Below, in pieces: positions 1,720 to 55,704 of a DNA stretch of 59,080 nt. The position numbers were made by a program, and so were the translations under genes. The DNA comes from Enterobacter phage EcP1. Position 1 is the stretch's first letter. The number at the start of each line of letters is the position of its first letter. The notes below the pieces were generated by a model that had not been told where the DNA came from, ran no database searches, and was given only the letters and a program-made list of their open reading frames with translations. The stretch lies in sequence record HQ641380.1. One strand, given 5' to 3'.

Positions 1720-1918
1720 TATAAATAAAGTTTTGTATTCATTAATAGATTCACCAATTCACAATTTATGCGATAATAATGGTAAAAATGAAGCTACTTT
1801 AACTTGCGAACTTATAAGACCTTTTATTAACATAAATTGTTCTCAATGCCCATTATGCAATACTTTTCCCACCACTAGAGAATCAATTGATAAAATGAGG
1901 ATTAAGTATAATGAATAA
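1712..1918 (+). CDS. small four-Cys protein, paralog family member 5
   Basis: MNNINKVLYSL...C...C...NCSQCPLC; overlaps the next MNNI start. Confidence 0.45.
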   Translation: MNNINKVLYSLIDSPIHNLCDNNGKNEATLTCELIRPFININCSQCPLCNTFPTTRESIDKMRIKYNE

Positions 1919-2099
1919 TATCACCATTATATTAAATTCCATGGAATCTGATACGGATATATGTACAGAATTTCATAAGAAATTCCCTGAATGTATAAAC
2001 TTTGATTGCTATAATTGCCCATTATCTAAATGGGGAACTTATAAAACTATAGACGATTTAAGATACGCTGAAAAATTTAACAGTATTTACGGAGATTAG
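1911..2099 (+). CDS. small four-Cys protein, paralog family member 6
   Basis: MNNITIILNSM...C...C...DCYNCPL...SIYGD. Confidence 0.45.
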   Translation: MNNITIILNSMESDTDICTEFHKKFPECINFDCYNCPLSKWGTYKTIDDLRYAEKFNSIYGD

Positions 2100-2100
2100 T

Positions 2101-2349
2101 ATGTCACTTAAACCTTATGAACAAACAGCTCGTATTATGGAATTACTTCGTGATATTCCAGATGAAGTTGAAAAACATTTCTGCTCTACATCGCCTGATT
2201 GCATGAAACAAGGTGGATGCTTCATTAAACCAGATGGAACCAGAGACAGAAGTAATTGTGCTTTATTCTCTGCTCCTGTTGAGGAGAATAATAAAGAGAT
2301 TGAAAAGCGGTATAAAACAAACTTACTTTTAGGAAGATTTAATGAATAA
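2101..2349 (+). CDS. hypothetical small Cys-containing protein
   Basis: 82 aa ORF with several Cys, ends ...RFNE; overlaps the next MNNI start; possibly a divergent relative of the array. Confidence 0.4.
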   Translation: MSLKPYEQTARIMELLRDIPDEVEKHFCSTSPDCMKQGGCFIKPDGTRDRSNCALFSAPVEENNKEIEKRYKTNLLLGRFNE

Positions 2350-2560
2350 TATTATAGATATTTTCTATGCTATATCAGAAAATCGCAGCGGAAGTCATAA
2401 CTATAAAGCTGCTATGTGCAATAAGGTATTAGCTTTAAGCTCAAAATTAGTTGATGAAACTAAGTGTGGTGTAAGCATCCATTGTTCAAACTGTGTATTC
2501 AATAATTCCAAAACAGATAATATTCCTAAGTTGCGTAAGCAGCTTAAGAAAATAGACTAA
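2342..2560 (+). CDS. small Cys-motif protein, paralog family member 7 (divergent)
   Basis: MNNIIDIFYAIS...C...C...HCSNCVF. Confidence 0.4.
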   Translation: MNNIIDIFYAISENRSGSHNYKAAMCNKVLALSSKLVDETKCGVSIHCSNCVFNNSKTDNIPKLRKQLKKID

Positions 2561-2587
2561 TCTTTAACTTTCAATGAGGAACCAGTA

Positions 2588-3796
2588 ATGCAAACATTTA
2601 CAGGTAAAGAGTATCTGAAAATTGATATCGCTAATAACTTTGGTTTAGATAAAAAGTTATTTCATGAGCGTATCGAATGGTTTGACAGTAACAAGTTCCG
2701 TCTCAAAGAACTGGTAAATGAAGCTGAGGAACCAGCATTATTCATGGCAGGTATGTTCGCTTATGAAGATATGATTCAGCGTAAACCTACCGGTTATACA
2801 GTAGCTATGGATGCATGCAGTTCAGGATTGCAGATTATGGCTGCTATCACAGGTTGTCGTGAAACAGCTAAGAATACAGGTCTGGTAGATCCTGATGTTC
2901 GTCCTGACGTATATACCACCGGTCATGAAGTTATGGCTACTATGATGGATATAGGTCAGTATCCGAGGCATATCCTGAAAGATGCCATCATGACCTATTT
3001 CTATGGTTCAGAAGCACGTCCTAAAGCAGCATTTGGAGAAGGTTCCAAAGAACTGGATGTATTCTTCCAAGTAATGAAGATCATCGCTCCTGCTGCATTT
3101 GTACTGCGTAATAGCCTGATAGAATTATGGCAACCAAATGTATTAAAACATTCATGGGTACTTCCTGATAACTTCCATGTTGAAATCAAAACAATGGTAG
3201 AAGTAGAGGAAGAAGTACATGTAAAACAATTAGGTATTGTATTCAAACAGAAGCGTAAAGTTAACAAAGGACAGGAGAAAGGATTACATCTGGCAGCTAA
3301 TACTATTCACAGTATTGATGCATTCGTTGTACGTGAGATGAACAGAAGATGTAATTATAACAGAGAATTAGTTCTTTCTCTTTTGGCTCTGCCTTGTACA
3401 GGACAAGGGTTAAACAGAAATGTAGACCATGCTCTGAGTGCTCTTATAAACTGCTATAAGGAGTCTAAGTTGTTATCTGTACGTTGTATCGATTATATCG
3501 ATATTCATAACTACGGTATGTTACCGGAAGAAATGAGAGAGGAATTAGAAAGTATCCTTAATGGTATGCTTAAGTATAAGCCTTTCCATTTGCTGACTGT
3601 ACATGATTGTTTCAGATGTCACCCTAATTACATGAATTGGGTACGACTGAATTATATTAAAATCTTCATGCAACTGGCGGACAGTGATATCTTGCAAGAC
3701 ATTGTTTCTCAGATTCGTGGAGTACCAACTGTAGTTAACAAAGTAACTAATGATCTGAGCAAGTACATTGCAAAGTCCAATTACATGTTAAGTTAA
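2588..3796 (+). CDS. N4-like RNA polymerase II catalytic subunit (T7-like single-subunit RNAP core, gp16-like)
   Basis: 402 aa; T7-RNAP-like motif A (VAMDACSSGLQIM), motif B (KDAIMTYFYGS) and motif C (LTVHDCF). Confidence 0.8.
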   Translation: MQTFTGKEYLKIDIANNFGLDKKLFHERIEWFDSNKFRLKELVNEAEEPALFMAGMFAYEDMIQRKPTGYTVAMDACSSGLQIMAAITGCRETAKNTGLVDPDVRPDVYTTGHEVMATMMDIGQYPRHILKDAIMTYFYGSEARPKAAFGEGSKELDVFFQVMKIIAPAAFVLRNSLIELWQPNVLKHSWVLPDNFHVEIKTMVEVEEEVHVKQLGIVFKQKRKVNKGQEKGLHLAANTIHSIDAFVVREMNRRCNYNRELVLSLLALPCTGQGLNRNVDHALSALINCYKESKLLSVRCIDYIDIHNYGMLPEEMREELESILNGMLKYKPFHLLTVHDCFRCHPNYMNWVRLNYIKIFMQLADSDILQDIVSQIRGVPTVVNKVTNDLSKYIAKSNYMLS

Positions 3797-5415: not shown

Positions 5416-5691
5416 ATGATCAAATCAATCATATTAATGCTTGCAGCCATATTATTAGTTGGATGCAGCGAGTTAAAAGAAGGCGATGCATTAAATATCT
5501 TCCACGATAATAATCGTTATGTAACTTGTTATGTTTACAAATCAGGCTATGCTGGTGGTATTTCATGCATACCAGACGATCAATTACCTGATCCCGAAAG
5601 TTGTGTACCGGGAACTAAAAACAAATCAGAAAACAGTGAATTTCCTGATTCATGTGTATCATTTAAAAATAAATATACAGATTTTTATTAA
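5416..5691 (+). CDS. putative lipoprotein
   Basis: MIKSIILMLAAILLVGC: signal peptide with an LVGC lipobox. Confidence 0.5.
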   Translation: MIKSIILMLAAILLVGCSELKEGDALNIFHDNNRYVTCYVYKSGYAGGISCIPDDQLPDPESCVPGTKNKSENSEFPDSCVSFKNKYTDFY

Positions 5692-5699
5692 GGTGAATT

Positions 5700-5879
5700 A
5701 TGGGAAAGTTACAGTTAGGATTTTCACCATTAACTAAAACTATTCAACTGGCAAGAATGAAAAATTTAGGAAATGGTGTGAAAGTCCGAGAAGGTAATAC
5801 ACCACCGAGAGATGTAACTAACGAAGCTGCACAATTGGTATGGCAATTAGTTATTGCAGAAGGTGGAACAATTCAATGA
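5700..5879 (+). CDS. hypothetical 59 aa protein (absent from the ORF track because it is under 60 aa)
   Basis: AGGTGA RBS 3 nt upstream of the ATG; fills an otherwise non-coding gap. Confidence 0.3.
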   Translation: MGKLQLGFSPLTKTIQLARMKNLGNGVKVREGNTPPRDVTNEAAQLVWQLVIAEGGTIQ

Positions 5880-7525: not shown

Positions 7526-8008
7526 ATGAAAGAAAATCGTTTAGTTCAAGGATGGGGCAATACCTGTCCTCAATGTGATCATGATGATGCTACAGTTAAA
7601 ACTGAGCATACTAATCCAATTGGTTATATAAACACTGAAGATAAAGCAGTATGTAATTACTGCGGGTTAGAAGGTGAAGTTGATTCTGATGGTGATGCAG
7701 CATGGATTACATGGCAGGAACCAGAAGATAAACAAACTGATTTGTATCATGCTTCTGTAATTAACGCAGAGGTAGTTCAGTTTACTGGTTCAACTACATC
7801 CGGTAATGCTATTCAGTATTGGGTAGAAAAAGGTGAATACATAAATCGCAGTATTCATACTTGTGATATTCGTGTATACGCTTTTGATTTACCTAACGGC
7901 GATAAGCTGGTAATGCAACCGCAGGACTATATTATCAAGCTTTCTGATAAAAACTTTGTAGCTGTCAGTCCTACTGTGTTTAATAAATTATTTAATAAGG
8001 TTGGTTGA
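7526..8008 (+). CDS. zinc-ribbon domain protein (possibly Lar-related N-terminus)
   Basis: TCPQCDHD...CNYCG four-Cys ribbon, then AAWITW. Confidence 0.4.
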   Translation: MKENRLVQGWGNTCPQCDHDDATVKTEHTNPIGYINTEDKAVCNYCGLEGEVDSDGDAAWITWQEPEDKQTDLYHASVINAEVVQFTGSTTSGNAIQYWVEKGEYINRSIHTCDIRVYAFDLPNGDKLVMQPQDYIIKLSDKNFVAVSPTVFNKLFNKVG

Positions 8009-8297
8009 AATGTCAGTTGAATATGAAATCAATAAAGCAGTGGCGCTTAAGTTTGGTATAGAGCACAGGGTCAATGATCTGGTTGGTGTTGTTTCAGCTG
8101 ATAGGTATAGGAAGTGTTACTATGATCCATGCAACAACGCGCAGCAGGCGTGGGAGATTATGCTTGCTAACAATATTTGTGTTTTAAATGTAGGTGATAA
8201 TTACGTTGCTTTTAATGTAAAAGGTAAAAGTGTAGACAGGCATAAGTTAGATGCAAAACCATTCGTAGCAGCAATGCTTTTATTCCTGGAGATCTGA
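8001..8297 (+). CDS. hypothetical protein with EINKAVA / DPCNN motifs (paralog of 4610..4981)
   Basis: YEINKAVA and YDPCNNAQQAW motifs shared with ORF 4610..4981. Confidence 0.45.
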   Translation: MVEMSVEYEINKAVALKFGIEHRVNDLVGVVSADRYRKCYYDPCNNAQQAWEIMLANNICVLNVGDNYVAFNVKGKSVDRHKLDAKPFVAAMLLFLEI

Positions 8298-8452
8298 AAA
8301 TGAATATTGTACGACGGGACAAGTAAAGTAGCTGAAAAGTTAGGCTGTCCGGAAGATTTGGTAAATCTGTCTAATGATGTTTTAGTAATGTAATTCCCAT
8401 TTGATTAAGCAGAATATATACTCTTGTTGAACCAATAACAGGAGTATATGAA

Positions 8453-9076: not shown

Positions 9077-9316
9077 ATGAATGAAATTGTACCAGAACTA
9101 AGTTTTGGTAAAAAAGCAGTAGGACTTACTTTTAATCCAAGTAATAAAACAGAAGTGGATACTGTCAAATGTTACTACGCGGATATCATCGACATGATGG
9201 ATAATTTACGTAAAAATACTGACAGTAAAGAAGTGCAACGACTGGCATCAATTGCTATCACCGAAGCACAAACAGCACAGATGTGGGCTGTTAAAGCCCT
9301 TACATGGAAAGACTAA
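9077..9316 (+). CDS. hypothetical protein
   Basis: 79 aa ORF with an RBS. Confidence 0.35.
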   Translation: MNEIVPELSFGKKAVGLTFNPSNKTEVDTVKCYYADIIDMMDNLRKNTDSKEVQRLASIAITEAQTAQMWAVKALTWKD

Positions 9317-9482
9317 TGAACTTACTGCTACGCTTCTTTTTAATCTTATGGCTTTTGATTAAAGAAGCAACACCAGAGATATTACATGAAAATATCTCTG
9401 CTTATTATTCACTGCCGGAACGCGCAGAACGCAAACCAGCGCATGCATTTGGAGCATGGTGACATAAGATAAAGCCAATACT

Positions 9483-9517
9483 GCCCTGATACTTGCACTA
9501 TCAGGGCTTTTTTTTTT
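9483..9517 (+). terminator. strong rho-independent terminator
   Basis: GCCCTGATA-CTTGCAC-TATCAGGGC, 9 bp stem, followed by T10. Confidence 0.8.
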
Positions 9518-9520
9518 AAC

Positions 9521-9690
9521 AGTCAGTATTGGGATTGGTGAATGCGAAGGCTGATTCGCCTCTTGGGTAGTAAAGGTGAGTAACTACCGGGTCATAACCA
9601 AACAAGTGCAAACGTACCGTGAATGCCCCTGTCGGCATTTAAGCACAAGCAGGAGTTCAGCACCTGCCACCAATCACCAATACTGACTAA
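9521..9690. other. structured non-coding element: inverted ATTGG/CCAAT repeats flanking three hairpins
   Basis: cagtattgggattggtga (9524-9541) is a near-perfect inverted repeat of caccaatcaccaatactg (9667-9685); between them lie hairpins GCGAA-n6-TTCGC, GGTAGT-n11-ACTACC and AATGCC-n6-GGCATT, and a GTGAATGC direct repeat. Confidence 0.4.
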
Positions 9691-9705
9691 GTAAGGATAA
9701 TTATT

Positions 9706-10182
9706 ATGGGATGCGATATTCACTGCTATTCTGAGAAAAGAAATAAAGAAACAGGTAAATGGGAACTGATACCTGAAATGATTAAAGAAATAGATGGAGA
9801 TTATACCGATTATCAAACAGATCAAATATTAAGTAATCGTAATTACATGCTATTTTCTATTTTAGCTGATGTGCGTAATTATGGTTTAAATGCTTATTGT
9901 ATTATCAGCGAACCAAAAGGACTTCCGGAAGATGTTTCAAATGAAGTAAAAGAAATGTCTGACTATTGGGATTGTGACGGACACTCGCATAGCTGGCATA
10001 CACTAAAAGATTTACTAGATCATTCTGCTAAATTTAAAAATGAAAGACGTCTATTAGAAATATTTCCGGAAGATTTAACAGAAGAATGGTATCTGAATCA
10101 AATTAATGAATGTATTCAACAAGCAGATGAATTAAATATTGAACCAGAAAATTACAGAATTGTATTTTGGTTTGATAACTAA
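9706..10182 (+). CDS. hypothetical protein (Cys/His clusters)
   Basis: 158 aa; GCDIHC and CDGHSHSW motifs. Confidence 0.4.
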   Translation: MGCDIHCYSEKRNKETGKWELIPEMIKEIDGDYTDYQTDQILSNRNYMLFSILADVRNYGLNAYCIISEPKGLPEDVSNEVKEMSDYWDCDGHSHSWHTLKDLLDHSAKFKNERRLLEIFPEDLTEEWYLNQINECIQQADELNIEPENYRIVFWFDN

Positions 10183-26721: not shown

Positions 26722-29700
26722 TTATCTAATAATTCTGACTAAATCACCGCCTGCCCCCCAAAGTGGGTGAGCGGTGATACCGTTAAACATGTTACCGAAT
26801 CCTAAGTTATAGGAGAAACTTCCGGTAATAGCATTGGCATCAAAGATATTAGGTACACTATTAATACCACTTAACATCATCAGAACTTTAATAGGATTTT
26901 CACGTAAAGTACGAATCAGTATTTTCTGAATACGAATCTTATAATTAAGGAACCAAGTAGCACCAATCGCTTCCAGATATGATCGTGTGCGGCTAGGCAG
27001 AATATTGTAGTTAACAAATTCATCCTTAACTCGTGTAAGTGCCTGCTCATGAGAAAGCGGATTACGCTGAGTTGTAAGTTTCTTATACAGAGAATATTTA
27101 GCAACAAAGTCACCATACTGAATTGATTTATTCAATACAGCATACGTAGCACTATCTTTGGTTATCAGGATATTTTTACCAACATTTGAAATACCGGTTG
27201 GAATTTTAGAAGTAATACCTTCCAGTTTTTTCATCAATTGGCCTTTATAACCAAAATCATCTGTATCAAATTTCTCAGATATAGCTGGTAATAACCCTTC
27301 TGCAATTAACGGAGCCAGTGGATTACGTGCCTGCTTATCGCGTAACTCAGATAAACGTGATTTGTATTTACCTTGCTCTGACGGATTCTGACCTAACTGA
27401 ATGAGGTGGCTTAAACGAATAATTTCACGCTCATTCTTGCGGAAGTCTTCAGCAGCAACAGTAGCCAGTGAAATATCTTTAGCCATCTGAATTGGTGACA
27501 CACCAACTGTAGCCAGATGAACCATATTGGAAATAATGTTAGCAGCAGAGACTACAACCGAACGTACAACAATCCAGTCTTTAGCATTGCTCACAAATTC
27601 TTTCCATCCACGTTCACCACGAGACAGGTATACAGCAGCTTTATCACCGAGAATATTACTGGCAACATCTTTAAATACTCGCTGGAATGCGTTCAGTTCT
27701 TCAGAATTTTTATTCCATAATTCTGTTACTGAAGGCATACGATAACCTAAAGCATTATTCAGTAAATCTTTACGGATAAAAAGCTTACCAGATACAATTT
27801 GTTCCTTGATATGGCTCTTCATTTCAGGAGGCATTAACCGATAGATTTCACGAATCTGCGGGTCAGAAGATTTTCCTGAAACTTCAATGTACTGATCTGC
27901 TTTACCTTCCTTCATATCTTTTTCATACGTTGCTTTCAGCACATCAACTAACGTAGCATTGAATTTATCAGCCATTGATTCTTCCAATATACGTCCTTCC
28001 CATGCTCCCATATTCTCAGCAAAATCGTTTGAAGTTTCTAAACGAGCATCTCTGTTAGCAAAATCCATCTGATACGAATAAGAAACAACAGCACCATTTC
28101 TGTCAACCATAGGCTGCATATAGTTACCTTCAACTGGTACTGCAACATTAGAATCAAACATGCTCTGCATAGCATTGCGTTTAGCTTCTGTCATTTTTGC
28201 TGCCTGAGAACCAGTATAACTAACTGTATTAACTCCATTGATAGTCTGGCCTGCATACGGGTCAACGCCTGCTATGGTATGACGCAGAGTGCTCATAACA
28301 CCAGATACCCAACGAGGATTAGCACCTTCATTACTCTGGAAGTAATACATTGGTTCACGGTTAAAATCTGATGGGTCACGAGCAACTTGATTACCCATCA
28401 CATAACCTTTGGCAATTAAATCACTTCTCTGTGATAAAGGAGCAATAACCACTTTCTTATTAGGATTACCTAATGAAGGTGAATAACCTTTAGGCGCAGC
28501 AAATGAACCATCTACATCCAGTTTTGATACTTCTTCTTTTTTAAGCATGTTGTAATAATTCATGGTAAATGTCAGACCATTATTTTCAGGGTCTTTAGAC
28601 ATTTCCTGATTCATTACTTCCAGCAGTTTATTTTTACTTACTGAATCTGTTTTCTGAATTGCATACAGAGAAGCCAGAGTATCAATAAGAGGTGCAGCAG
28701 CAACCGGAATATTAACATTAGCAACAGATTTACCTGTACCAATCACATGAGCGATTGAACGCGCATTAGGCAACTGATATGGCATAGGTGATACACCGGT
28801 AACAATTTGTTGACCTAAACCAAGAGCAGACTTTTTGTAGAATGTAGCAATTTCAGTATCAGGCTGAACTGCATCAATCTTCGCTTCTATATCCTTAATC
28901 TCTTTTGTAAGAGCCGCATTGTCCTCTACAAGAGTTTTAAGCTTAGTAATGTCATAACCGTTAGCATAAAGATAACTCATGTCAGAATTGATTACAGAGC
29001 GTTGTATCGCCTGTTTGCTTTCTTTATCTAAAGACACATACTGACTTTCAATAATCTCAGGAACTTCTTCACGTAATACCTGACGAGCCTTCTCCTGAAC
29101 CATAGCAGTATGATCTTTCATGTCATGAATAACTTTATTAGCATCATTGGTTCCCAGCATTTCCTGAACCAATTCACCAAATGCACCTAACTTTTTATCG
29201 TAAAGGTTATTGATGAAATTAGAGACACCTTCACGTACTGCACCGGCAGCTTGTTCAGATGCAATTGATGCAGCAACAGCAGCAGTAGGAGCAACTGCAA
29301 TTTTCACATATTTGTTCAGCTTATCTGATGCAGCACCTTTTAGCATGGCATCAGCAATAGTATCTCTCACTCCTTGAATTTTATCTTCATAAGGCTGCGC
29401 TAATTCAGCAGCCTTGTCTTCGATTTTATTCAGGATAGATTGACGTGACTCTGCATCAAAATGGCTGAGGTTACGGTTAAGCTTATCCAAACGTGAACCA
29501 ATAGTACCAGATACACCAGACTTGCCAGCCAGACCTGATACCTTAGACATGACCAGACCAACGTAATATTCGATATTCTCTTTTAATCCTACCGGCTCAG
29601 ATTTTTTAGGCTGATAACCTGCAAGATTATCCAGAATATTTCTGAATTGTTCGTTGGTTGCTGCTAATGCAAGGAAGTTAGCCAGACGATTAGATTTACC

Positions 29701-32700
29701 AGACGCATCTGCTTTAACTGCACTATTACCAAATACTGCATCGTATTTAGCTTTGGCTAATCCCATTGTCATAACGTTATTGATATCCGGATTATCTAAA
29801 AACATTTCCGGAGTAACAGCACGTTTAGCAGTTTCATACAGACGATTAGCCTCAACAGTCTTAAATCCAAATTCATCCAGACCAGCTTTAAGAGAAACCT
29901 GCATCATCTTAAATACCAGCATTTCTTTTTCACTCATATTAAAACCATGAGCGATAAATGAATCTGCTGAGGTATCTACTTCAGGTGAAAGGTTATTAAG
30001 CAGTAATGTATCTTCAAAGGTTTCAATCCCTTCAATTGGCTTACCACGCTGTTTAACCAGATCATAAATACCGTTGGTAACATTCTGGAAAACATTATTA
30101 AGATGGTTCAGATGTTCAATAGAACTGTTACCATCAGATAATCGGTCATACATTGCATTGGCAGTCATGTTATTAACTGCGTCTGCATTCTGCTGATACA
30201 GTGGAGTAGCAGATTCAGATTCTTTAGACGCTTTAACAGAATCAACCAGAGATACTGTGTTACCTAACAATTTAGTAAAGTAACTATTAATACGGGTATC
30301 GGAACCAATAGCAAACAATGATTTGATTGCATCATAGATTCTGGAAATAAACTTAGTTAATTTACCTGAAGATTTATTTGAAGAAAGGGAATCCTGCATA
30401 TGCTGGTTAGTTAATCCCCATGCAACAAATTCGCTTAATGCTTCAAACTTTTCACCATTGCTTAAATGGTCTTCGATTAAATTAATTACTCGTTGCGATT
30501 CATTTGTCTTATCGACATTAGTATCAGCCATAAATTCCTGCATCAGCGATTCCAGATTAGAAATGGAATTACGTGCGTGCTTAGGCATTTTTTCAGGAGC
30601 AGTATAATAATCCTGAATAGCCTGCTGAGTACCCGCATGAATCAGTTCATGAGTAACAGTTTCGATAGATGGATTAGCAACAAAAATATTATTACCGATA
30701 GTCACAGCATTACCATCAAAAGAAAGATTACTGAATAAATCAGGATATTCTTTTCTGAGGTGATCTGAAATCTTATCGATTGAACCAAACTGAATAACAG
30801 TATCGGCAGGAATAAGAGGCATGATTTTACCTAATACATACCGATTAATTTTATTCTGCTGAGTAGGTTCTTTACTGGTTCGCAGTGAAACAATACGATT
30901 AATCGCATCTGCATTAACTGAAGTGAGGCCATTAGCATCAGTAGTACCTAATGCTTTTACCATTTCATTTAATACATTATCAGGAGCAGATACTACACGG
31001 TTAGTTGCTCTGTTTGGTTCAACAGGCAGGTTTACAGAATGCATCCATTTTTCAAGTGGTGTCATAGAGTCGGTAATAATTTCTGATGCTTTCCCAGCAA
31101 CATGATTATTAACAACACCTGAACCTGTCATTTGGTCGATAGATGATGGAATACCTGATTTAAATAAACCATCTTTTAAAGCTTTAACCCGAGCAGCTTC
31201 ATACTGTAAATCCTTCTTGAATTCTGCAATAAATGCAGGGTCAACAGGGTTGGTTAAATTTTCATTCTTCTGCACTTTCTTATATGACTTTTCAAGACGT
31301 GCTATAGCAGCATCAGACAGATTCAGATTATTGAAATCTACCTGAGTACCCTTATCAAATTTAGAGAAGAAATCTGAAAGTAAATCAAAGTTAGCCCATG
31401 AATTGATAACACCATTGTTAATGGCATGACTGCTTTCTGTCATACCGGTAATTGGTGCTTCATAGCCATCAAACACGTTTAATGCAGTATGCGGGTTTTC
31501 CATACGGGCTACAGCCTGCATAGATGCTTCCATAGACTGAACCAATAAAGGCATAGCACGTACACCCGGGTCAGTGAATGTGATAGCCTCAGTGCGGGTT
31601 ACAGCTTTCTTACCGTTAACTTTAGTCATGGATTCAACATTCTTAGAAGTGGAATTTTCTTCAAAACCCATCTCACCAAGATAAATACCCTGACTGTTTT
31701 TAGCAGTATCAGTATTGTTTGCAGTAAGCACTGAATTAAAGATAGGAGCATACTCACTCAGTTCAAAGAAAATATCTTCTACCTGTTTGCGAGATAAGTC
31801 TTCATACTTACTCAGTTCTCCTGCTTCGCGCAGTTCTTTTGTTTTTTCTTCTACTCTCTCGTTAAACTTCTGCAAGAAGATTTCATGCATAAGGTTAGAA
31901 GCATAAACCATCATATTCGCACGTTTAATAATAGTACCAAATTTATCTTTAATTGCTCTATTAACGTACTTACCTAATCCCATAGATACATTAATTCTTA
32001 CTGCACGAATTTGCTCCGGGGTAAAAGAAAATTCACTAACTTTTGTAATTTTAACTGGAGTTCCTACTTCAAAACTTTTAGTCTTAAATACAGTAAGAGG
32101 ATTAATAGCCTGAACCATATTCTGCAACTCGGACAGAATCATTTTCTTCTGATTTACAGATACTGCATTCTTATACTGAAGATTTAAATCACTCAGTTTT
32201 TCATAGAAAGTATCAATAATACCCTTAGCAATTTTATTATTAATTGCTGTAGGGGAACCGGAATACACGGTAACAGTGATTGGATTCTTAAGCAAACCAC
32301 GCTTAATATTCACATCAGTACCAGCATTCTCATTCTGAGTGAGTGTAATATCACCAACGAAATGAGATGCAGCTCTGATAATAGAAGCCTCATGCTCAAC
32401 CAGAGCAATGTCAGATTCCAACATATATTTATTTTTGGTTCCCACCATTTTAGCTACTTCAGCTTTCCATTTAGGTAACTGATTTACCTTGTCGTAGAAT
32501 GCTGTTAAAGCCTGCTGGGAAACTGTAGAAGTATCTTCATACAAATCAGTGAAACCCTTATTGGCTTCTTTGAATGAGTTGTATAACTGACCTTCTTCAC
32601 CAAAGAACATTCCGCCTTTCTTCAAAAGATTAAGCTGATTCTGGCTTAAATCATTTAACCCTAACTGGATAATGGCGTTGAACGGGCCGTTAGTAATACC

Positions 32701-35700
32701 ATCCAGTTCAAGGGTAAGATTTATAGGTACAAAAGTTTGACCAGACTGTTTAGCCAAATCGTAACGAGCCTGTGCATACAGACCATGCATTGATTTAGTT
32801 TTCTCTCCACCTAATTCAACTGCTTTCAGGATTGTCTGACGAATAGCATCATCAGCCTGACCATCATTAAGGATATACTTAATAGCATTGAGAGCAGGTT
32901 TAAAATCAGTAGCGAGCTTATCTGCTAACTGTTTTTCAGAAGTTTCTACAGATTGTTTATCAACTTTAATTCCAAGGCTTTGAGCCACTGCTAAATTAAA
33001 GAAGCGTTCATGCTCTATATTACCTACTTCCACCTGAGAAGGTGGCACAGTAACTAACTCACGATGCAGTTTAGTAGTCTGCGGGTTCCAGTCAGCACTG
33101 GATAAGTTCAGACGATAGTTAACACCTAAGTTATAAGCAAAACGTACTTTTGCTGTAGCAGGATCAATTCCCGCATTATTCATACGGTTCCACCCTGTAT
33201 GCCAACGCTCAATATCATTCGCAACAGTACGATTATATCCTTCGACAGATTTCTCATGCTCTTTATTCAATCCTTCGATAGGCTTAATACCAAGCATATT
33301 TTCTACAAATGGTTCACCCATAATATCAAACAGGAAACTATTTAATTCAGTATTCACAACATGATGCTGTTCAGAAGCTTTACGACGAGATTTAGCCAAT
33401 AATTCAGGAGCTTTCTGGAAGACTCCATTATGAATATTATTATCGGTATATCTTACTGGTTCGTTGAAAGCAGCAGTTTTCTTCTCTCTTTCAGGTACAG
33501 CCAATTCACCAAGAATATCATTGGAATCTTTCAACAGAGTGATAATGTCATTTACTGTCTGGTTATCAGCAACGTTAACAAATACACGAGTATTTTTACG
33601 ATTATCCTCATTAACTAAAGTTGAACCAAGTGATTCAAGTTCACTATTGGAAATGTTAGTAATCTTAAACATGTCCATGTTAACGAGTGTATTGTAAGCA
33701 TCTACTGCAATACCTTTGGATACTGCATCCACTACAGATTGTGGCGCATTTACATCAGGAGAGATTGCCAGAGTTTTCATAATATCTCTGGATAAATCGC
33801 TGAGAATATTATTACGGTCTGTACCAATTTCACCTAATGCTTCCCAATGTTCAGCAGTTGGTTCGGTTTTATTATCCAGACCGAGAATATCCATTACTGC
33901 ACGAGAGTCATTATATTTGACGAGAGGAGCAGATTGACCAAACCAACGCAGAGCATTGAGCGCCATAGAATCGATAACATGTTGTGCAGGTGCATATACA
34001 GTTTCTCCGTTAATTTCACGAGGTACTGAAAAGTATTGAGTAGGATTAGAAGACCAGTAAATACGTTCACCTTCTTTAGGTAAACTATCTACGTTATCAA
34101 AGAATGTTTTACTGAATTTAGTTTTAAAATCTTCGTACTCTTTCAGTACAGAAATTTCGTGTTCTGTTACTTTGAGAGGATCAATATGATTTTTAACTAA
34201 CTCACGCACATCAGTCAGAGGATTAGCTGAGTTCAATGCTTCAGATAATTTCTGACCAAAGTTTTCAGTATTAAATGCAAAGTTTTTATTCTGAGGTTTA
34301 AACCATTTTTTAACCTGATTAGTTGCCAGATATTTTTTATCGATATCAGATATTTTTGCATTAGCTTTTGTCTCAGGAACTACAGTTTCAGCAGGAATTT
34401 CCTGCATAACTTTTTCAGATACTTTGATATCTGTTTTGGTTCCCTCATTGGTAAGGGTAGCAATTTCGTTTTCTGTTTCTGCTACTGGTTCTGCTGTCTG
34501 TGTTTCTTCTTCTTTTGCAGGTACTGCTGTTTCTTCCTGTACGGCATCAGGAGCAGTTTTAATTTCTGCTTGTTCAGTTGCAGGGGCAGACTCTGTAGGC
34601 TTAACAGTAGCTTGCTTAGTCTGTTTTTCAGCATCTACGTAAATAGATTTAAGAGAAGCATAAGCATTAACTACAGCCTGAGCATCATTTTTCATAGATT
34701 CCAGTAATTTCTTACTGCGAACCGGATGTGCTGTCATAGCTGAACCATCAAGAGAACGATATGACTCACCGGTAATAGGGTTAGTAACCACTACAGGCTG
34801 ATCACCACTCTGCATGCTATTCATTACAGATTCAAAAGTATCTGCTTTAGTCTGCATATGGTCTGCGAAACGTCCGAGACGATTAACCTGCTGTAATGCT
34901 ACAGGTAAGTTACCAGAGTTAAGAGCTGAAATAGTTCTCTGCTGATATTCATTAATTCCGGTAAAACCATCTGAACCATTCAGAACATCATTGCTTACAC
35001 CTTCAGTATTCTTCTTCATCTGAGATGCAATTTTTAATTGCTGAACCTGCGCAGGAGTTAATTTAATAGCATCTGCGTGAGTCAGTAATTTATCAATAAT
35101 GCTGGCAGGTACTTTGGTAGCATCCAGATTAACCTGCTGAAGAATAGGGATAACAGATTTATATGTCTCAGGGGTGAAATCACCTGCATCCATTTTGGTA
35201 TTAACTTCCTCAGCAACTTTAGTGATAGCAGCTTCGGACAATGACATACCGCTGAAAGATTTATTGATAAAATCTACCAGAGGACTAGCCATAATTTGAG
35301 AGAATGCATCAATACCAGCCTGATACTGTGCTTTCTGTGCATCATCAGTAGCTGAATTATATGCGTCTGTGTATGCATCAACATAAGCCTGATAAGTATC
35401 TACAGCAATCTTACCGGCAATAATCATGTCACGTTTGGTTGTAGCATCATTTTCAGAAGATTTAATACCATTGATAACACGAGTAAGTACATCAGCAGGA
35501 GCATCAGTATTGATATCTAAATTCTTGAAAGTCTCTTTGGCTTTCTCAGTATGAACCAATGAATCAACAGGTACTGGCTCAGAAACTTTATTTTCTTCAG
35601 GAACAAATTGTTGTGCCTGTTTAGCAGCTTCATTTAATTCAGTAGCCTGTTTCTCTTGTCGTTTGGTTCCCGCTTCTCCGGCACGTTTATTAAGTTGATT

Positions 35701-37230
35701 GGCTACTACATTCATACCGGCAGTAACAGTATTCTGAGCACCGGAACCAATAACAGGAATAGCATGCGCACCGGATACAGTTGCACCCATACCCAAGCCT
35801 GCAATTAATCCCTGAGCACCTGATTGACCTAAACCATCAGTAAGAGATTTATTTTTATCAGCAGTCTGCACACCAACGTTAGAAGCAAACTGACCTGTAA
35901 CGCCCTGACCTAATTCTTCAGTACCTTCTTTAACGATACCACCAACTTTTGCACGGACACCTTGCAATGAACCTCTGTTCAGAGCATTGCCTTCAAAATT
36001 AGCAGCACCGGTTAATTTAGATACAAGCATACCTGAAGCACCGGCAATTAATGCGGTCTTATCCGTAGCTAATCCAATTACTCGTTGTTTAGCAATTTCA
36101 GGGGAGTTACCAGCATCAATGAAATCACGATAAGCTTCTGAATTTTTCATCAGATCTTCATGACTCATTTTAAAAATTTCATCACGAGCCTGATCAGCAT
36201 TTGAGAAGCCTTCGGTTAAACCAATATAACCTAATGCTGCTTTCTCGGATGCTTTCATTAATTCTTTCTTACCAACTTCTGTAGCCAGATACTCAGCAGC
36301 TTTTTCTTTACCTAAATTCTGAGTAATACCTTTTACAGTAGTTTTGAGTGCAATCTTACCTACCGCACCAGCAGTAAGCAGATCAGGTGCAGATTCAGCG
36401 GTATCAGTTAATGCAGCAACAGGGTTATCAGTATAGTTACCTAAAGTATCAAAAAATTGCTGTGCCTGATTAATAGCTTCAGAGAAACCAGCATTCATAC
36501 CAGAATTGATACGATCTTTACTTTCTTTCTCACGTAATTTTTTGGATTCTTCATTATCCATTTCCTGACGTTTTTGTTGGAACTGTGCAACATCAGAATA
36601 ATTTTCTTTACGGTCTTCTACCCACTGAGCTAATTTCTGAGTAGCTCCATCTTTAGTCTGGTCTAAACCACCATAACCTAATGCATCAATAACCGCATCT
36701 TCACCACCATCAATGACAGAGGCTACATCACGCAGTACTTCGTTAGCTGTACGGTCTAACATATCTACTAAGCCAAGACCCATACGACCAGTCTGACCAG
36801 CCCAAACAGTAGCAGCGTTAGCAACGTCACCAGCAGCTTCACCTAAATTATATGGGATATTATCCATACGATTGGTTTCTGCTTCCTGAAGTGCATTGAC
36901 GCGTTTTAAATCGGTACTGTCTGTACCATATACAGAATCAAACGTATTAGCAGGCATACCTGTCAGATATTCTGAGAATTGATTAGCAGGAGTAGGCTGC
37001 TCTGGCTGAACCAAATTACCCTGATTATCAGTTACAGGAATATCATTAACAATTGCAGGAGTCTCTACAGTAGGTTGCGGTACGGTCAACTGAAGTAACT
37101 CATTCTCTTTGTTATTAAAAATAGTATCCATAGATTCTCTTTTCTGAGAACCTGCATACTCAAGCATGCCCTGCTTTGTGTTCTGTACTGCCTCATTTCT
37201 TTTGAGGTAGTCTTCAAAAGGATTAGCCAT
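26722..37230 (-). CDS. virion-encapsidated giant RNA polymerase (N4 vRNAP-like)
   Basis: About 3500 aa single ORF; T7-like motif A DGITNGPFNAIIQ and motif B KNPITVTVYSGS in its centre; start set at MANPF (AGGGGA RBS) rather than the upstream ATG at 37296. Confidence 0.8.
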   Translation of the reverse strand: MANPFEDYLKRNEAVQNTKQGMLEYAGSQKRESMDTIFNNKENELLQLTVPQPTVETPAIVNDIPVTDNQGNLVQPEQPTPANQFSEYLTGMPANTFDSVYGTDSTDLKRVNALQEAETNRMDNIPYNLGEAAGDVANAATVWAGQTGRMGLGLVDMLDRTANEVLRDVASVIDGGEDAVIDALGYGGLDQTKDGATQKLAQWVEDRKENYSDVAQFQQKRQEMDNEESKKLREKESKDRINSGMNAGFSEAINQAQQFFDTLGNYTDNPVAALTDTAESAPDLLTAGAVGKIALKTTVKGITQNLGKEKAAEYLATEVGKKELMKASEKAALGYIGLTEGFSNADQARDEIFKMSHEDLMKNSEAYRDFIDAGNSPEIAKQRVIGLATDKTALIAGASGMLVSKLTGAANFEGNALNRGSLQGVRAKVGGIVKEGTEELGQGVTGQFASNVGVQTADKNKSLTDGLGQSGAQGLIAGLGMGATVSGAHAIPVIGSGAQNTVTAGMNVVANQLNKRAGEAGTKRQEKQATELNEAAKQAQQFVPEENKVSEPVPVDSLVHTEKAKETFKNLDINTDAPADVLTRVINGIKSSENDATTKRDMIIAGKIAVDTYQAYVDAYTDAYNSATDDAQKAQYQAGIDAFSQIMASPLVDFINKSFSGMSLSEAAITKVAEEVNTKMDAGDFTPETYKSVIPILQQVNLDATKVPASIIDKLLTHADAIKLTPAQVQQLKIASQMKKNTEGVSNDVLNGSDGFTGINEYQQRTISALNSGNLPVALQQVNRLGRFADHMQTKADTFESVMNSMQSGDQPVVVTNPITGESYRSLDGSAMTAHPVRSKKLLESMKNDAQAVVNAYASLKSIYVDAEKQTKQATVKPTESAPATEQAEIKTAPDAVQEETAVPAKEEETQTAEPVAETENEIATLTNEGTKTDIKVSEKVMQEIPAETVVPETKANAKISDIDKKYLATNQVKKWFKPQNKNFAFNTENFGQKLSEALNSANPLTDVRELVKNHIDPLKVTEHEISVLKEYEDFKTKFSKTFFDNVDSLPKEGERIYWSSNPTQYFSVPREINGETVYAPAQHVIDSMALNALRWFGQSAPLVKYNDSRAVMDILGLDNKTEPTAEHWEALGEIGTDRNNILSDLSRDIMKTLAISPDVNAPQSVVDAVSKGIAVDAYNTLVNMDMFKITNISNSELESLGSTLVNEDNRKNTRVFVNVADNQTVNDIITLLKDSNDILGELAVPEREKKTAAFNEPVRYTDNNIHNGVFQKAPELLAKSRRKASEQHHVVNTELNSFLFDIMGEPFVENMLGIKPIEGLNKEHEKSVEGYNRTVANDIERWHTGWNRMNNAGIDPATAKVRFAYNLGVNYRLNLSSADWNPQTTKLHRELVTVPPSQVEVGNIEHERFFNLAVAQSLGIKVDKQSVETSEKQLADKLATDFKPALNAIKYILNDGQADDAIRQTILKAVELGGEKTKSMHGLYAQARYDLAKQSGQTFVPINLTLELDGITNGPFNAIIQLGLNDLSQNQLNLLKKGGMFFGEEGQLYNSFKEANKGFTDLYEDTSTVSQQALTAFYDKVNQLPKWKAEVAKMVGTKNKYMLESDIALVEHEASIIRAASHFVGDITLTQNENAGTDVNIKRGLLKNPITVTVYSGSPTAINNKIAKGIIDTFYEKLSDLNLQYKNAVSVNQKKMILSELQNMVQAINPLTVFKTKSFEVGTPVKITKVSEFSFTPEQIRAVRINVSMGLGKYVNRAIKDKFGTIIKRANMMVYASNLMHEIFLQKFNERVEEKTKELREAGELSKYEDLSRKQVEDIFFELSEYAPIFNSVLTANNTDTAKNSQGIYLGEMGFEENSTSKNVESMTKVNGKKAVTRTEAITFTDPGVRAMPLLVQSMEASMQAVARMENPHTALNVFDGYEAPITGMTESSHAINNGVINSWANFDLLSDFFSKFDKGTQVDFNNLNLSDAAIARLEKSYKKVQKNENLTNPVDPAFIAEFKKDLQYEAARVKALKDGLFKSGIPSSIDQMTGSGVVNNHVAGKASEIITDSMTPLEKWMHSVNLPVEPNRATNRVVSAPDNVLNEMVKALGTTDANGLTSVNADAINRIVSLRTSKEPTQQNKINRYVLGKIMPLIPADTVIQFGSIDKISDHLRKEYPDLFSNLSFDGNAVTIGNNIFVANPSIETVTHELIHAGTQQAIQDYYTAPEKMPKHARNSISNLESLMQEFMADTNVDKTNESQRVINLIEDHLSNGEKFEALSEFVAWGLTNQHMQDSLSSNKSSGKLTKFISRIYDAIKSLFAIGSDTRINSYFTKLLGNTVSLVDSVKASKESESATPLYQQNADAVNNMTANAMYDRLSDGNSSIEHLNHLNNVFQNVTNGIYDLVKQRGKPIEGIETFEDTLLLNNLSPEVDTSADSFIAHGFNMSEKEMLVFKMMQVSLKAGLDEFGFKTVEANRLYETAKRAVTPEMFLDNPDINNVMTMGLAKAKYDAVFGNSAVKADASGKSNRLANFLALAATNEQFRNILDNLAGYQPKKSEPVGLKENIEYYVGLVMSKVSGLAGKSGVSGTIGSRLDKLNRNLSHFDAESRQSILNKIEDKAAELAQPYEDKIQGVRDTIADAMLKGAASDKLNKYVKIAVAPTAAVAASIASEQAAGAVREGVSNFINNLYDKKLGAFGELVQEMLGTNDANKVIHDMKDHTAMVQEKARQVLREEVPEIIESQYVSLDKESKQAIQRSVINSDMSYLYANGYDITKLKTLVEDNAALTKEIKDIEAKIDAVQPDTEIATFYKKSALGLGQQIVTGVSPMPYQLPNARSIAHVIGTGKSVANVNIPVAAAPLIDTLASLYAIQKTDSVSKNKLLEVMNQEMSKDPENNGLTFTMNYYNMLKKEEVSKLDVDGSFAAPKGYSPSLGNPNKKVVIAPLSQRSDLIAKGYVMGNQVARDPSDFNREPMYYFQSNEGANPRWVSGVMSTLRHTIAGVDPYAGQTINGVNTVSYTGSQAAKMTEAKRNAMQSMFDSNVAVPVEGNYMQPMVDRNGAVVSYSYQMDFANRDARLETSNDFAENMGAWEGRILEESMADKFNATLVDVLKATYEKDMKEGKADQYIEVSGKSSDPQIREIYRLMPPEMKSHIKEQIVSGKLFIRKDLLNNALGYRMPSVTELWNKNSEELNAFQRVFKDVASNILGDKAAVYLSRGERGWKEFVSNAKDWIVVRSVVVSAANIISNMVHLATVGVSPIQMAKDISLATVAAEDFRKNEREIIRLSHLIQLGQNPSEQGKYKSRLSELRDKQARNPLAPLIAEGLLPAISEKFDTDDFGYKGQLMKKLEGITSKIPTGISNVGKNILITKDSATYAVLNKSIQYGDFVAKYSLYKKLTTQRNPLSHEQALTRVKDEFVNYNILPSRTRSYLEAIGATWFLNYKIRIQKILIRTLRENPIKVLMMLSGINSVPNIFDANAITGSFSYNLGFGNMFNGITAHPLWGAGGDLVRIIR

Positions 37231-37321
37231 TTTATCCCCTGTTAAAAATGAAAAAAGGTTTGTTGATATCTTACATTTAAAATGAAGAACCAACAAACCT
37301 AATATATAGCTTAAAGTGTAA

Positions 37322-55468: not shown

Positions 55469-55543
55469 GGTAAGTTAGCTAATAGGTGAAGCACCTGACT
55501 GTTAATCAGTGATAGAGTGGTTCGATTCCACTACTTACCGCCA
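55469..55543 (+). tRNA. tRNA-Asn (GTT), tentative
   Basis: Acceptor GGTAAGT/ACTTACC, T-arm AGTGG-TTCGATT-CCACT, anticodon loop CTGTTAA, encoded CCA; one mismatch in the anticodon stem and a 3 bp D-stem. Confidence 0.5.
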
Positions 55544-55546
55544 TTT

Positions 55547-55623
55547 CGGGATATAGCTCAGTTTGGTAGAGTGTCTGCTTTGGGAGCAGAATGTCGTTGG
55601 TTCAAGTCCAGCTATCCCGACCA
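55547..55623 (+). tRNA. tRNA-Pro (TGG)
   Basis: Cloverleaf: acceptor CGGGATA/TATCCCG, D-arm GCTC..GAGT, anticodon loop TTTGGGA, T-arm GTTGG-TTCAAGT-CCAGC, encoded CCA. Confidence 0.75.
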
Positions 55624-55627
55624 ATTA

Positions 55628-55704
55628 GTGCCTTTAGCTCAGACGGTTAGAGCAGCCGACTCATAATCGGTAGGTCACAGGTTCAAATCCTGTAGGGCGC
55701 ACCA
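55628..55704 (+). tRNA. tRNA-Met (CAT)
   Basis: D-arm GCTC-AGACGGTTA-GAGC, anticodon loop CTCATAA, T-arm ACAGG-TTCAAAT-CCTGT, acceptor AGGGCGC, encoded CCA. Confidence 0.75.

Follow-up and report, generated by a model that had tools for sequence, protein, structure and literature searches.

A structured RNA module shared by an N4-like phage and Morganellaceae prophages, apparently akin to the lambda N-leader hairpin and a candidate RNase III processing site

The DNA described here is the 59,080-nucleotide (nt) stretch of Enterobacter phage EcP1 held in sequence record HQ641380.1, which we refer to as the window. A gene block on its plus strand ends in an intrinsic terminator, found in a terminator scan, that consists of a stem GCCCTGATA/TATCAGGGC (9 pairs and a 7-nt loop, 9483-9507) and a run of ten T residues (T10, 9508-9517). 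Starting 2 bases past this run, a 170-nt element occupies positions 9520-9689 and forms the leader of a small open reading frame (ORF) that begins at 9706 (ORF 9706). We analyzed the fold of this element, its relatives in other phages and its apparent kinship with the hairpin in the leader of the lambda N gene, and we consider it a candidate RNase III processing site. An earlier note on this DNA, made from the sequence alone, had held that no ORF explains the element; this holds, as the overlapping ORFs at 9516-9638 (minus strand), 9592-9825 (minus) and 9576-9686 (plus) are not conserved and the interior of the element is replaced in its relatives.

The element is closed by a long-range helix, P1, whose strands CAGTCAGTATTGGGATTGGTG (9520-9540) and CACCAATC-A-CCAATACTGACTA (9668-9689) form 21 base pairs (bp) with one bulged A. 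The inner part of this helix had been noted before as near-perfect 18-nt reverse-complement arms, and indeed cagtattgggattggtga (9524-9541) and caccaatcaccaatactg (9668-9685) are reverse complements at a spacing of 126 nt, save for A9676, the one extra base of the 3' arm and the sole imperfection; the complementarity then continues outward to both ends of P1. The terminator claimed by the earlier note was likewise recovered, as was its repeated octamer, GTGAATGC, which is present at 9538-9545 and 9619-9626 with a hairpin following each copy. The three internal hairpins of that note are there too but were undercounted, the element containing at least four (P2 at 9544-9559, two at 9566-9588 and 9621-9640, and P3 at 9649-9667). 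The loops of P2 (GCUGA, 9550-9554) and P3 (UCAGC, 9657-9661) are complementary to each other, and P3 directly abuts P1 with zero spacer. RNA folding, one of the checks that had been proposed, gave -69.7 kcal/mol for 9510-9700 (z = -4.8), and none of 200 shuffles was equally stable. The reverse strand folds with about equal stability, which is to be expected of a structure that is mostly Watson-Crick paired. The G+C content of the element is 48.8%, compared to 36.9% for the window, placing it in the top 0.25% among 170-nt windows; values as high are essentially confined to transfer RNA (tRNA) genes in the window. A scan for long-range stems found no comparable one elsewhere in the window. The Rfam scan, a further proposed check, gave no match for the element: at gathering scores, only three tRNAs were reported in the window (a cluster at 55469-55704, plus strand, comprising Asn-GTT, Pro-TGG and Met-CAT), and an E-value scan of 9400-9760 yielded noise only. 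With ARAGORN, neither the element nor any of 20 related loci yielded a tRNA or transfer-messenger RNA.

Table 1. Features of the element and its surroundings (window positions; SD, Shine-Dalgarno sequence)
Feature	Position	Strand	Details
Intrinsic terminator at the end of the upstream block of genes	9483-9517	+	9-bp stem, 7-nt loop, T10; outside the shared element
P1, 5' strand (CAGUCAGUAUUGG followed by GAUUGGUG)	9520-9540	+	Lower 13 bp and upper 8 bp; invariant core UUGGGAU
Junction AAU between P1 and P2	9541-9543	+	AAU, AGU or AAC in relatives; AA in Sf6-type leaders
P2 hairpin	9544-9559	+	GCGAA 9544-9548, loop GGCUGA 9549-9554, UUCGC 9555-9559
Variable interior ('cargo'), 89 nt	9560-9648	+	Local hairpins 9566-9571/9583-9588 and 9621-9627/9634-9640
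P3 hairpin	9649-9667	+	GCAGG 9649-9653, loop AGUUCAGCA 9654-9662, CCUGC 9663-9667
P1, 3' strand	9668-9689	+	CACCAAUC, bulged A9676, CCAAUACUGACUA; invariant core AUC(A/G)CCAA
SD AAGGA (9693-9697) and ATG (9706-9708)	9693-9708	+	SD 4 nt past the end of P1
Downstream ORF, 158 amino acids (MGCDIHCY...), phrog_10141	9706-10182	+	Element forms the leader of this ORF

A BLAST search of 9300-9900 against 50,697 phage records returned a single match, to the Providencia phage PSTRCR_117lys, a temperate Hendrixvirinae phage of 41 kb. The match is limited to 9520-9688, with 95.3% identity, and the flanks are unrelated. The window itself is the DNA of a novel lytic N4-like phage: it encodes a 3524-amino-acid protein of virion-RNA-polymerase size (26722-37296, minus strand), and its DNA polymerase and MoxR-like ATPase are only about 70% identical to proteins of N4-like Klebsiella and Vibrio phages. 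A Morganellaceae host appeared probable. At the level of sequence, this comparison shows that the element is horizontally shared between phages, and a temperate phage of Morganellaceae was probably the source from which the lytic N4-like phage acquired the window copy. No close relatives of the window phage were found in INPHARED, IMG/VR or a metagenome scan, the last of which gave only distant homologues of ORF 9706, and therefore an empty site was not recoverable. A BLAST search of plasmids with the element gave no match. Of the eight differences between the window and PSTRCR_117lys copies, six lie in loops or at unpaired positions, one converts a C-G pair to U-G and one breaks the outermost part of P1. 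Considering that about 60% of the bases are paired, this sparing of pairs is suggestive rather than conclusive (p ~0.05 by our own binomial estimate).

Relatives of the element were collected by scanning IMG/VR with a 17-mer from the arm followed by local BLAST, which gave about 25 related elements, and by additional scans that supplied the Proteus-type copies. In total, about 40 copies besides those of the window and PSTRCR_117lys were identified on IMG/VR prophage contigs and in Morganella genomes, representing Morganella and Proteus prophages. When one genome per species was scanned, the arm was found only in Morganella, in 2-3 copies per genome located in prophage early regions. The relatives range in length from 79 to 209 nt, and all full-size copies have the same order of parts: P1 (13 + 8 bp with one bulged purine in the 3' strand), AAU, P2 (5 bp, with a 6-7-nt loop ending in GCUGA), the interior, P3 (5 bp, with a 9-10-nt loop containing UCAGC) directly abutting P1, and the second strand of P1. 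Every copy is co-directional with its operon, and in relatives the copies are placed in the 5' leaders of early operons or in their intergenic parts. In class B, from Morganella, and class C, from the Proteus phage vB_PvuS_Pm34 and from prophages, the element lies within N leaders, in the order PL-like promoter, boxA (GCTCTTTTACAA), boxB-like hairpin, element, and SD and ATG of an N homologue that matches phrog_271 ('anti-termination protein N-like', E 1e-6). Class A, to which the window copy belongs, is found further down early-left operons or, in PSTRCR_117lys, past the repressor-moron block. The distance from the end of P1 to the SD is 0-6 nt in the window and in class B and C copies; for several copies, the next start codon is 65-185 nt away.

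Other features were seen around these copies. The immunity regions of Morganella prophages contain moron-like genes around the elements. On contig L010, a gene for a 384-amino-acid endonuclease-family protein (phrog_4225; 1747-2901, plus strand) follows cI, and reverse-oriented ORFs lie between N and a second element copy on L010 (3792-4241, minus) and L036 (2063-2566, minus). A Morganella prophage contig (L024) has an Rfam sRNA-Xcc1 match of 81 bits (5631-5719, plus) about 5 kb from its element copy.

Conservation of the fold was assessed on a normalised alignment of 25 distinct copies, in which AAAA took the place of the interior and the longer loops were shortened by one unpaired base, because MAFFT alignment of the untrimmed scaffolds mis-registered loops of unequal length. 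Pairing was maintained in 97.0% of cells, compared to 89.3% in shuffles and 21-48% in slid controls. Covariation occurs in all four helices (P1, P2, the loop-loop helix and P3), with both partners changed at 15 of 36 pairs, a value reached in 0 of 500 shuffles; such double changes affect four of five pairs in P2 (helix 2), three of five in the loop-loop helix (helix 3) and four of five in P3 (helix 4). In the loop-loop helix, GCUGA:UCAGC is replaced by UGACA:UGUCA in L022 and L029, and L011 has an in-register change from C-G to A-U. P2 exists in at least 10 different stem versions, every one of them paired, and P3 varies from GCAGG/CCUGC to GCCGG/CCGGC or GUAGG/CCUAC. Between classes, P1 changes in its outer part in a compensatory manner (GUAUUGG/CCAAUAC versus UUUUUGG/CCAAAAA), its upper part reads GAUUGGUG/CACCAAUC, GAUGCGGU/ACCGCAUC or GAUGCUGU/ACAGCAUC in Proteus-type copies, and at least 19 of the 21 P1 pairs are kept in 14 arm variants of the relatives. 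The core flanking the bulge, UUGGGAU/AUC(A/G)CCAA, is alone invariant. Among the cells, G·U combinations far outnumber internal A·C combinations (20 versus 3), and the selected fold is therefore likely to be that of the gene-strand RNA, not of DNA. Together, the alignment supports a structured RNA with selection on its fold across the family.

These results bear on three functions that the earlier note had offered as candidates. A small structured RNA is upheld in the sense that covariation, strand-specific G·U pairs and orientation all indicate structure; this support does not extend to a free-standing small-RNA gene, and no promoter or terminator belonging to the element itself was found. 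The other two candidates, an iteron-type replication origin and an operator-like protein-binding site, would place the function at the level of DNA and take their cue from the tandem ATTGG and CCAAT units of the arms, of which there are only two per arm. In one Morganella prophage copy (L007; 3410-3470, minus strand), the 3' arm of P1 contains five tandem units of the CACCAAT heptamer, an expansion that looks like slippage. Against such a function, the repeats constitute the opposing strands of a helix maintained by compensatory change, the wobble pairs are specific to one strand and the loop-loop pseudoknot covaries, while an element rich in G+C has neither a direct iteron array nor an AT-rich region or a replication gene nearby. 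We consider a DNA-level feature highly improbable. The proposed search for covariation in relatives thus had a positive outcome, and the horizontal sharing, the pseudoknot and the kinship with lambda had escaped the earlier note.

The module could also be a non-functional passenger, i.e. prophage DNA that entered an intergenic gap in the manner of a miniature inverted-repeat transposable element (MITE) or by illegitimate recombination. This would fit its inverted-repeat ends (9520-9540 and 9668-9689), the precise boundary between module and unrelated flanks in two phages, a G+C content foreign to the window, the existence of ORF 9706 homologues in other phages that lack the element, and the presence in the window of a second patch (8124-8316) in common with a temperate Proteus phage. 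Like MITEs and enterobacterial repetitive intergenic consensus (ERIC)-like repeats, the element is a short intergenic module that has inverted repeats at its ends and occurs in unrelated genomic backgrounds; unlike them, it has a low copy number (one in the window, 2-3 per Morganella genome), a fixed orientation that is always co-directional with transcription, and RNA-level covariation including a pseudoknot, which indicates selection on the fold in the family. In addition, it is confined to prophage early operons, shows no association with a transposase and has no evident target-site duplication, as the bases flanking it (AA before and AAG after in the window, G before and TTAC after in PSTRCR_117lys) reveal no consistent one. 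All helices are intact in the window copy. A passenger role is therefore improbable in our view. A high-copy host repeat of the MITE type was considered separately and rejected on the basis of the one-genome-per-species scan.

The closest known counterpart of the element is found in lambda, where the order is nutL, hairpin, N ribosome-binding site (RBS), and where autorepression by N is relieved by RNase III cleavage. In the lambda N leader, nutL is followed by GCUUUGG-GGUGUGUG and, on the opposite strand of the helix, CACACACC-A-CCAAAGC (8 bp, a bulged A and 7 bp), after which comes the SD of N. Both this hairpin and the element have a long-range stem that closes a structured domain immediately upstream of an SD, a geometry of about 8 bp, one bulged A in the 3' strand and then 7-13 bp, and the core UUGGG(A/G)U/A(U/C)C-A-CCAA; the bulge geometry of P1 is seen in lambda, Sf6 and Pm34, and class B and C relatives occupy exactly lambda's position between nutL and N. 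The lambda cleavage sites, which we take to be near +88 and +197, would fall within this conserved core, after UUGG in UUGGG and after CACC in CACCAA. R1, a covariance model based solely on scaffolds of Morganella and Proteus copies, was searched against the 48.5-kb lambda genome and identified 35375-35507 (minus strand), which is the N-leader hairpin, with 28.2 bits and E ~2e-5, the next match having E 5.5, all E-values of this model being rough. R1 also matches the leaders of HK542 (28.2 bits) and vB_EcoP-683R2 (19.4 bits). Lambda and Sf6 escaped a covariance-model search run with filters off, probably owing to inserts longer than the window of the model.

Further leaders of this kind extend the comparison. 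Those of Sf6, mEp213, HK633 and HK544 (the 232-nt type) have the complete scaffold in unrelated sequence: P1 with a bulged A, the junction AA, P2 as GCCAG(CUAGUCA)CUGGC, P3 as GCUGG(AGCUAGACUA)CCAGC abutting P1, and complementary loops UAGUC/GACUA. As judged from these sequences, the Sf6-type scaffold provides independent support for the architecture and the homology. The lambda hairpin itself differs in having no P2/P3 kissing-loop pair, which the Sf6-type leaders do carry. In coliphage and Shigella-phage leaders with lambda-type nutL and N (L087-L093 and L071), identical flanks enclose four unrelated inserts of 74, 122, 136 and 232 nt; the N-leader hairpin thus constitutes a mosaic hot-spot in Escherichia coli phages too. 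By model, geometry and position, the lambda N-leader hairpin and the element appear to be members of one RNA family. Within it, the window copy differs from that of lambda in lying outside an N leader and in a lytic N4-like phage; like the class A copies of prophages, it is a paralogue located away from the context that defines the family.

Whereas the scaffold is conserved, the interior is not. Copies longer than 100 nt carry at least 18 mutually unrelated interior types, with 96-100% identity within a type even across loci and genera; for example, the interiors of L019 (class A, Morganella) and L079 (a Proteus-type N leader) are 96% identical, and their P2 and P3 stems are compensatorily different. 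Short members (79-101 nt) have next to no interior. The type present in the window is common to PSTRCR_117lys only and has no Rfam match. The L011 interior scores 36.7 bits against the Rfam tRNA model (gathering score 29) with intact D and T arms, and that of L036 scores 21 bits. Domains with a D arm, a T arm (GGTTCGATTCC) and imperfect acceptor and anticodon stems lie inside the leader elements of some Morganella prophages, at 1424-1492 of L011 (minus strand), 1602-1666 of L036 (plus) and about 3480-3510 of L007, and ARAGORN does not call them as tRNAs. Overall, the interior looks cassette-like and exchangeable, with some types apparently tRNA-like. Small structured RNAs excised from leader transcripts are known from other systems, such as the CI RNA of P4, the c4 RNA of phages P1 and P7, and the bacterial Y RNA YrlA. 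They resemble those family interiors in which D- and T-arm mimicry of tRNA is closed by a long stem, and differ from the window interior, which is not tRNA-like and for which no complementary targets were found; the Rfam scans gave no Y RNA or c4 match for the element, a Ro-binding motif not having been specifically searched. The longest complementarity of interiors was 11 nt to the window and 8-12 nt to their own loci, which equals that of shuffles and foreign loci, and an antisense function or RNA immunity of the P4 kind was rejected for this reason.

The diversity of the interiors suggests a reading in which the element would be a cassette that expresses a small RNA acting in trans, with P1, P2 and P3 as scaffold and excision signal and the interior as the product, released early in infection, e.g. 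as a decoy or tRNA mimic directed against a host or defence factor. Such a function would be compatible with cleavage. It would account for the many unrelated interiors found on one scaffold, each strongly conserved across loci, for the occurrence of an identical interior type with different P2 and P3 stems, and for the tRNA-like interiors, one of which scores above the Rfam threshold; the differences between the window and PSTRCR_117lys spare the interior stems, and an Acb2/Tad1-like anti-defence gene is located two ORFs upstream of the window copy. Conversely, the short members, including the 74-nt type of HK542, are nearly interior-free and yet the locus is kept, no antisense target exceeds chance in the window or in the elements' own loci, the window interior resembles nothing in Rfam, and a stable excised RNA is so far a predicted product. 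We therefore regard the trans-acting cassette as possible and hold it with clear reservations.

We favor the reading that the element is an RNase III processing or uncoupling site ahead of ORF 9706, and by analogy with lambda consider this probable, if by no means certain. The element would be co-transcribed with ORF 9706 by read-through of the T10 terminator. P2 would fold first, and the loop of the newly made P3 would then kiss the P2 loop, clasping the ends together such that P1 can form across 126 nt whatever the interior. The resulting 21-bp duplex, with the conserved UUGGG/C-A-CCAA core around the bulged purine, would be the substrate of host RNase III, which may cut both strands of P1 near the bulge core. 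Cleavage would uncouple the downstream messenger RNA (mRNA) from upstream RNA and leave it with a short, defined leader that starts just before the SD and a free ribosome-binding site, and it would set free the domain made up of P2, the interior and P3, an RNA of about 130-140 nt. For copies in N leaders, the effect of cleavage is expected to be the same as in lambda. Action of RNase III on the lambda N leader or N mRNA is described in PMC8708148, and in PMC5371410 and PMC5725501, which cite Steege et al. 1987 and Wilson et al. 2002, respectively.

Two other classes of RNase III substrates can be compared with the element. The sites in the early mRNAs of T7 and T3 (R0.3, R0.5 and R1.1, among others) are also phage-encoded intergenic stems, and they cut the polycistronic early transcript into units and set mRNA ends. 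They differ in having no long-range stem, enclosed variable domain or kissing loops; a T7 site is a hairpin of about 50-60 nt that contains an internal loop and usually receives a cut on one strand. No sequence relationship to these sites was seen, with no search aimed at one. In bacterial ribosomal RNA (rRNA) operons, which have boxA and boxC (PMC10250234, PMC8632103), boxA is followed by a long-range helix around a structured RNA; RNase III cuts this helix and thereby releases pre-16S rRNA, and tRNAs are co-transcribed. The leader-trailer helix of rRNA and the element family thus have in common a nut-like boxA with an enclosing helix and tRNA or tRNA-like units in the same transcript; the rRNA helix encloses rRNA and spans 1.5 kb as opposed to about 0.1-0.2 kb, and the window copy has no boxA.

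Several observations weigh against processing of the window copy by RNase III. Cleavage is demonstrated for the lambda member alone of the family, and for the window copy both transcription and cleavage are proposed solely by analogy with it. The copy lies after a terminator and before an unrelated ORF, with no adjacent nut site or N gene seen, and therefore lambda's relief of N autorepression is inapplicable. The element begins only 2 nt past the strong T10 terminator, and since no sigma-70-like promoter was found between that terminator and ORF 9706, expression depends on read-through. Besides the roughness of the R1 E-values, R1 split the window copy on the plus strand owing to its long insert and did not recover the Sf6-type leaders; arm-only nhmmer profiles did not detect the lambda N leader, and the link to lambda is drawn from the covariance model, geometry and position. 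Finally, a simple processing site leaves unexplained an interior that is hypervariable, conserved within each type and partly tRNA-like.

The position of P1 close to the SD could instead point to a cis-regulator that acts independently of RNase III, either because a phage or host protein binds the bulge core or because the uncleaved stem gates the ribosome-binding site or blocks 5'-3' decay. The core at the bulge is invariant while distal P1 covaries, which suggests sequence-specific recognition; the 0-6-nt spacing between P1 and the SD holds for the window as well as class B and C copies, and UAAGGA (9692-9697) is weakly paired to an upstream U-run in the minimum-free-energy fold. Yet the member that has been studied, that of lambda, is a substrate of RNase III according to PMC5725501, PMC5371410 and PMC8708148, and several copies are so far from the next start codon (65-185 nt) that SD gating cannot be general. 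We judge a role of this kind unlikely.

The genes that neighbor the element are small accessory ORFs. Two genes upstream, an ORF for 79 amino acids (9077-9316, plus strand) matches the Pfam Acb2/Tad1 hairpin domain with 37.5 bits (cut-off 27), which suggests a sponge-like gene directed against Thoeris or the cyclic-oligonucleotide-based antiphage signalling system (CBASS) and a neighbourhood with accessory or anti-defence functions. Further upstream, the 193-bp patch at 8124-8316 is 95.9% identical to the temperate Proteus phage vB_PmiP_RS51pmB, in which it spans ORF12 plus the beginning of a Cro-family regulator; in the window, the patch lies inside an ORF (8001-8297) that has a weak NinX-like match. 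Apart from this patch and the element, the window has no close DNA relatives.

Seen as a whole, the family changes the standing of the lambda N-leader RNase III hairpin, so far treated as a lambda-specific detail, which joins a family found in coliphages, Shigella phages and phages of Morganellaceae. As a kind, a leader hairpin that RNase III processes is already known from lambdoid phages. What appears to be new, judging from the literature consulted and from Rfam, is the family-wide scaffold with a covarying kissing loop and cassette interiors, including tRNA mimics, as well as the copies outside N leaders and the capture by a lytic N4-like phage. The family raises the question of how so great a diversity of interiors goes together with the conservation of each type and the tRNA-like character of some. 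One speculative answer, to which we give limited credence, is that the scaffold is a general, RNase III-dependent launching pad for phage early small RNAs, with interiors swapped as trans-acting cassettes and the lambda hairpin as a reduced member. If true, this would explain the capture by a lytic N4-like phage beside an Acb2/Tad1-like gene, and the cargos, tRNA mimics among them, might be e.g. decoys against host defences that target RNA or tRNA. The family in any case offers a defined RNA motif absent from Rfam and a candidate portable processing or insulator part.

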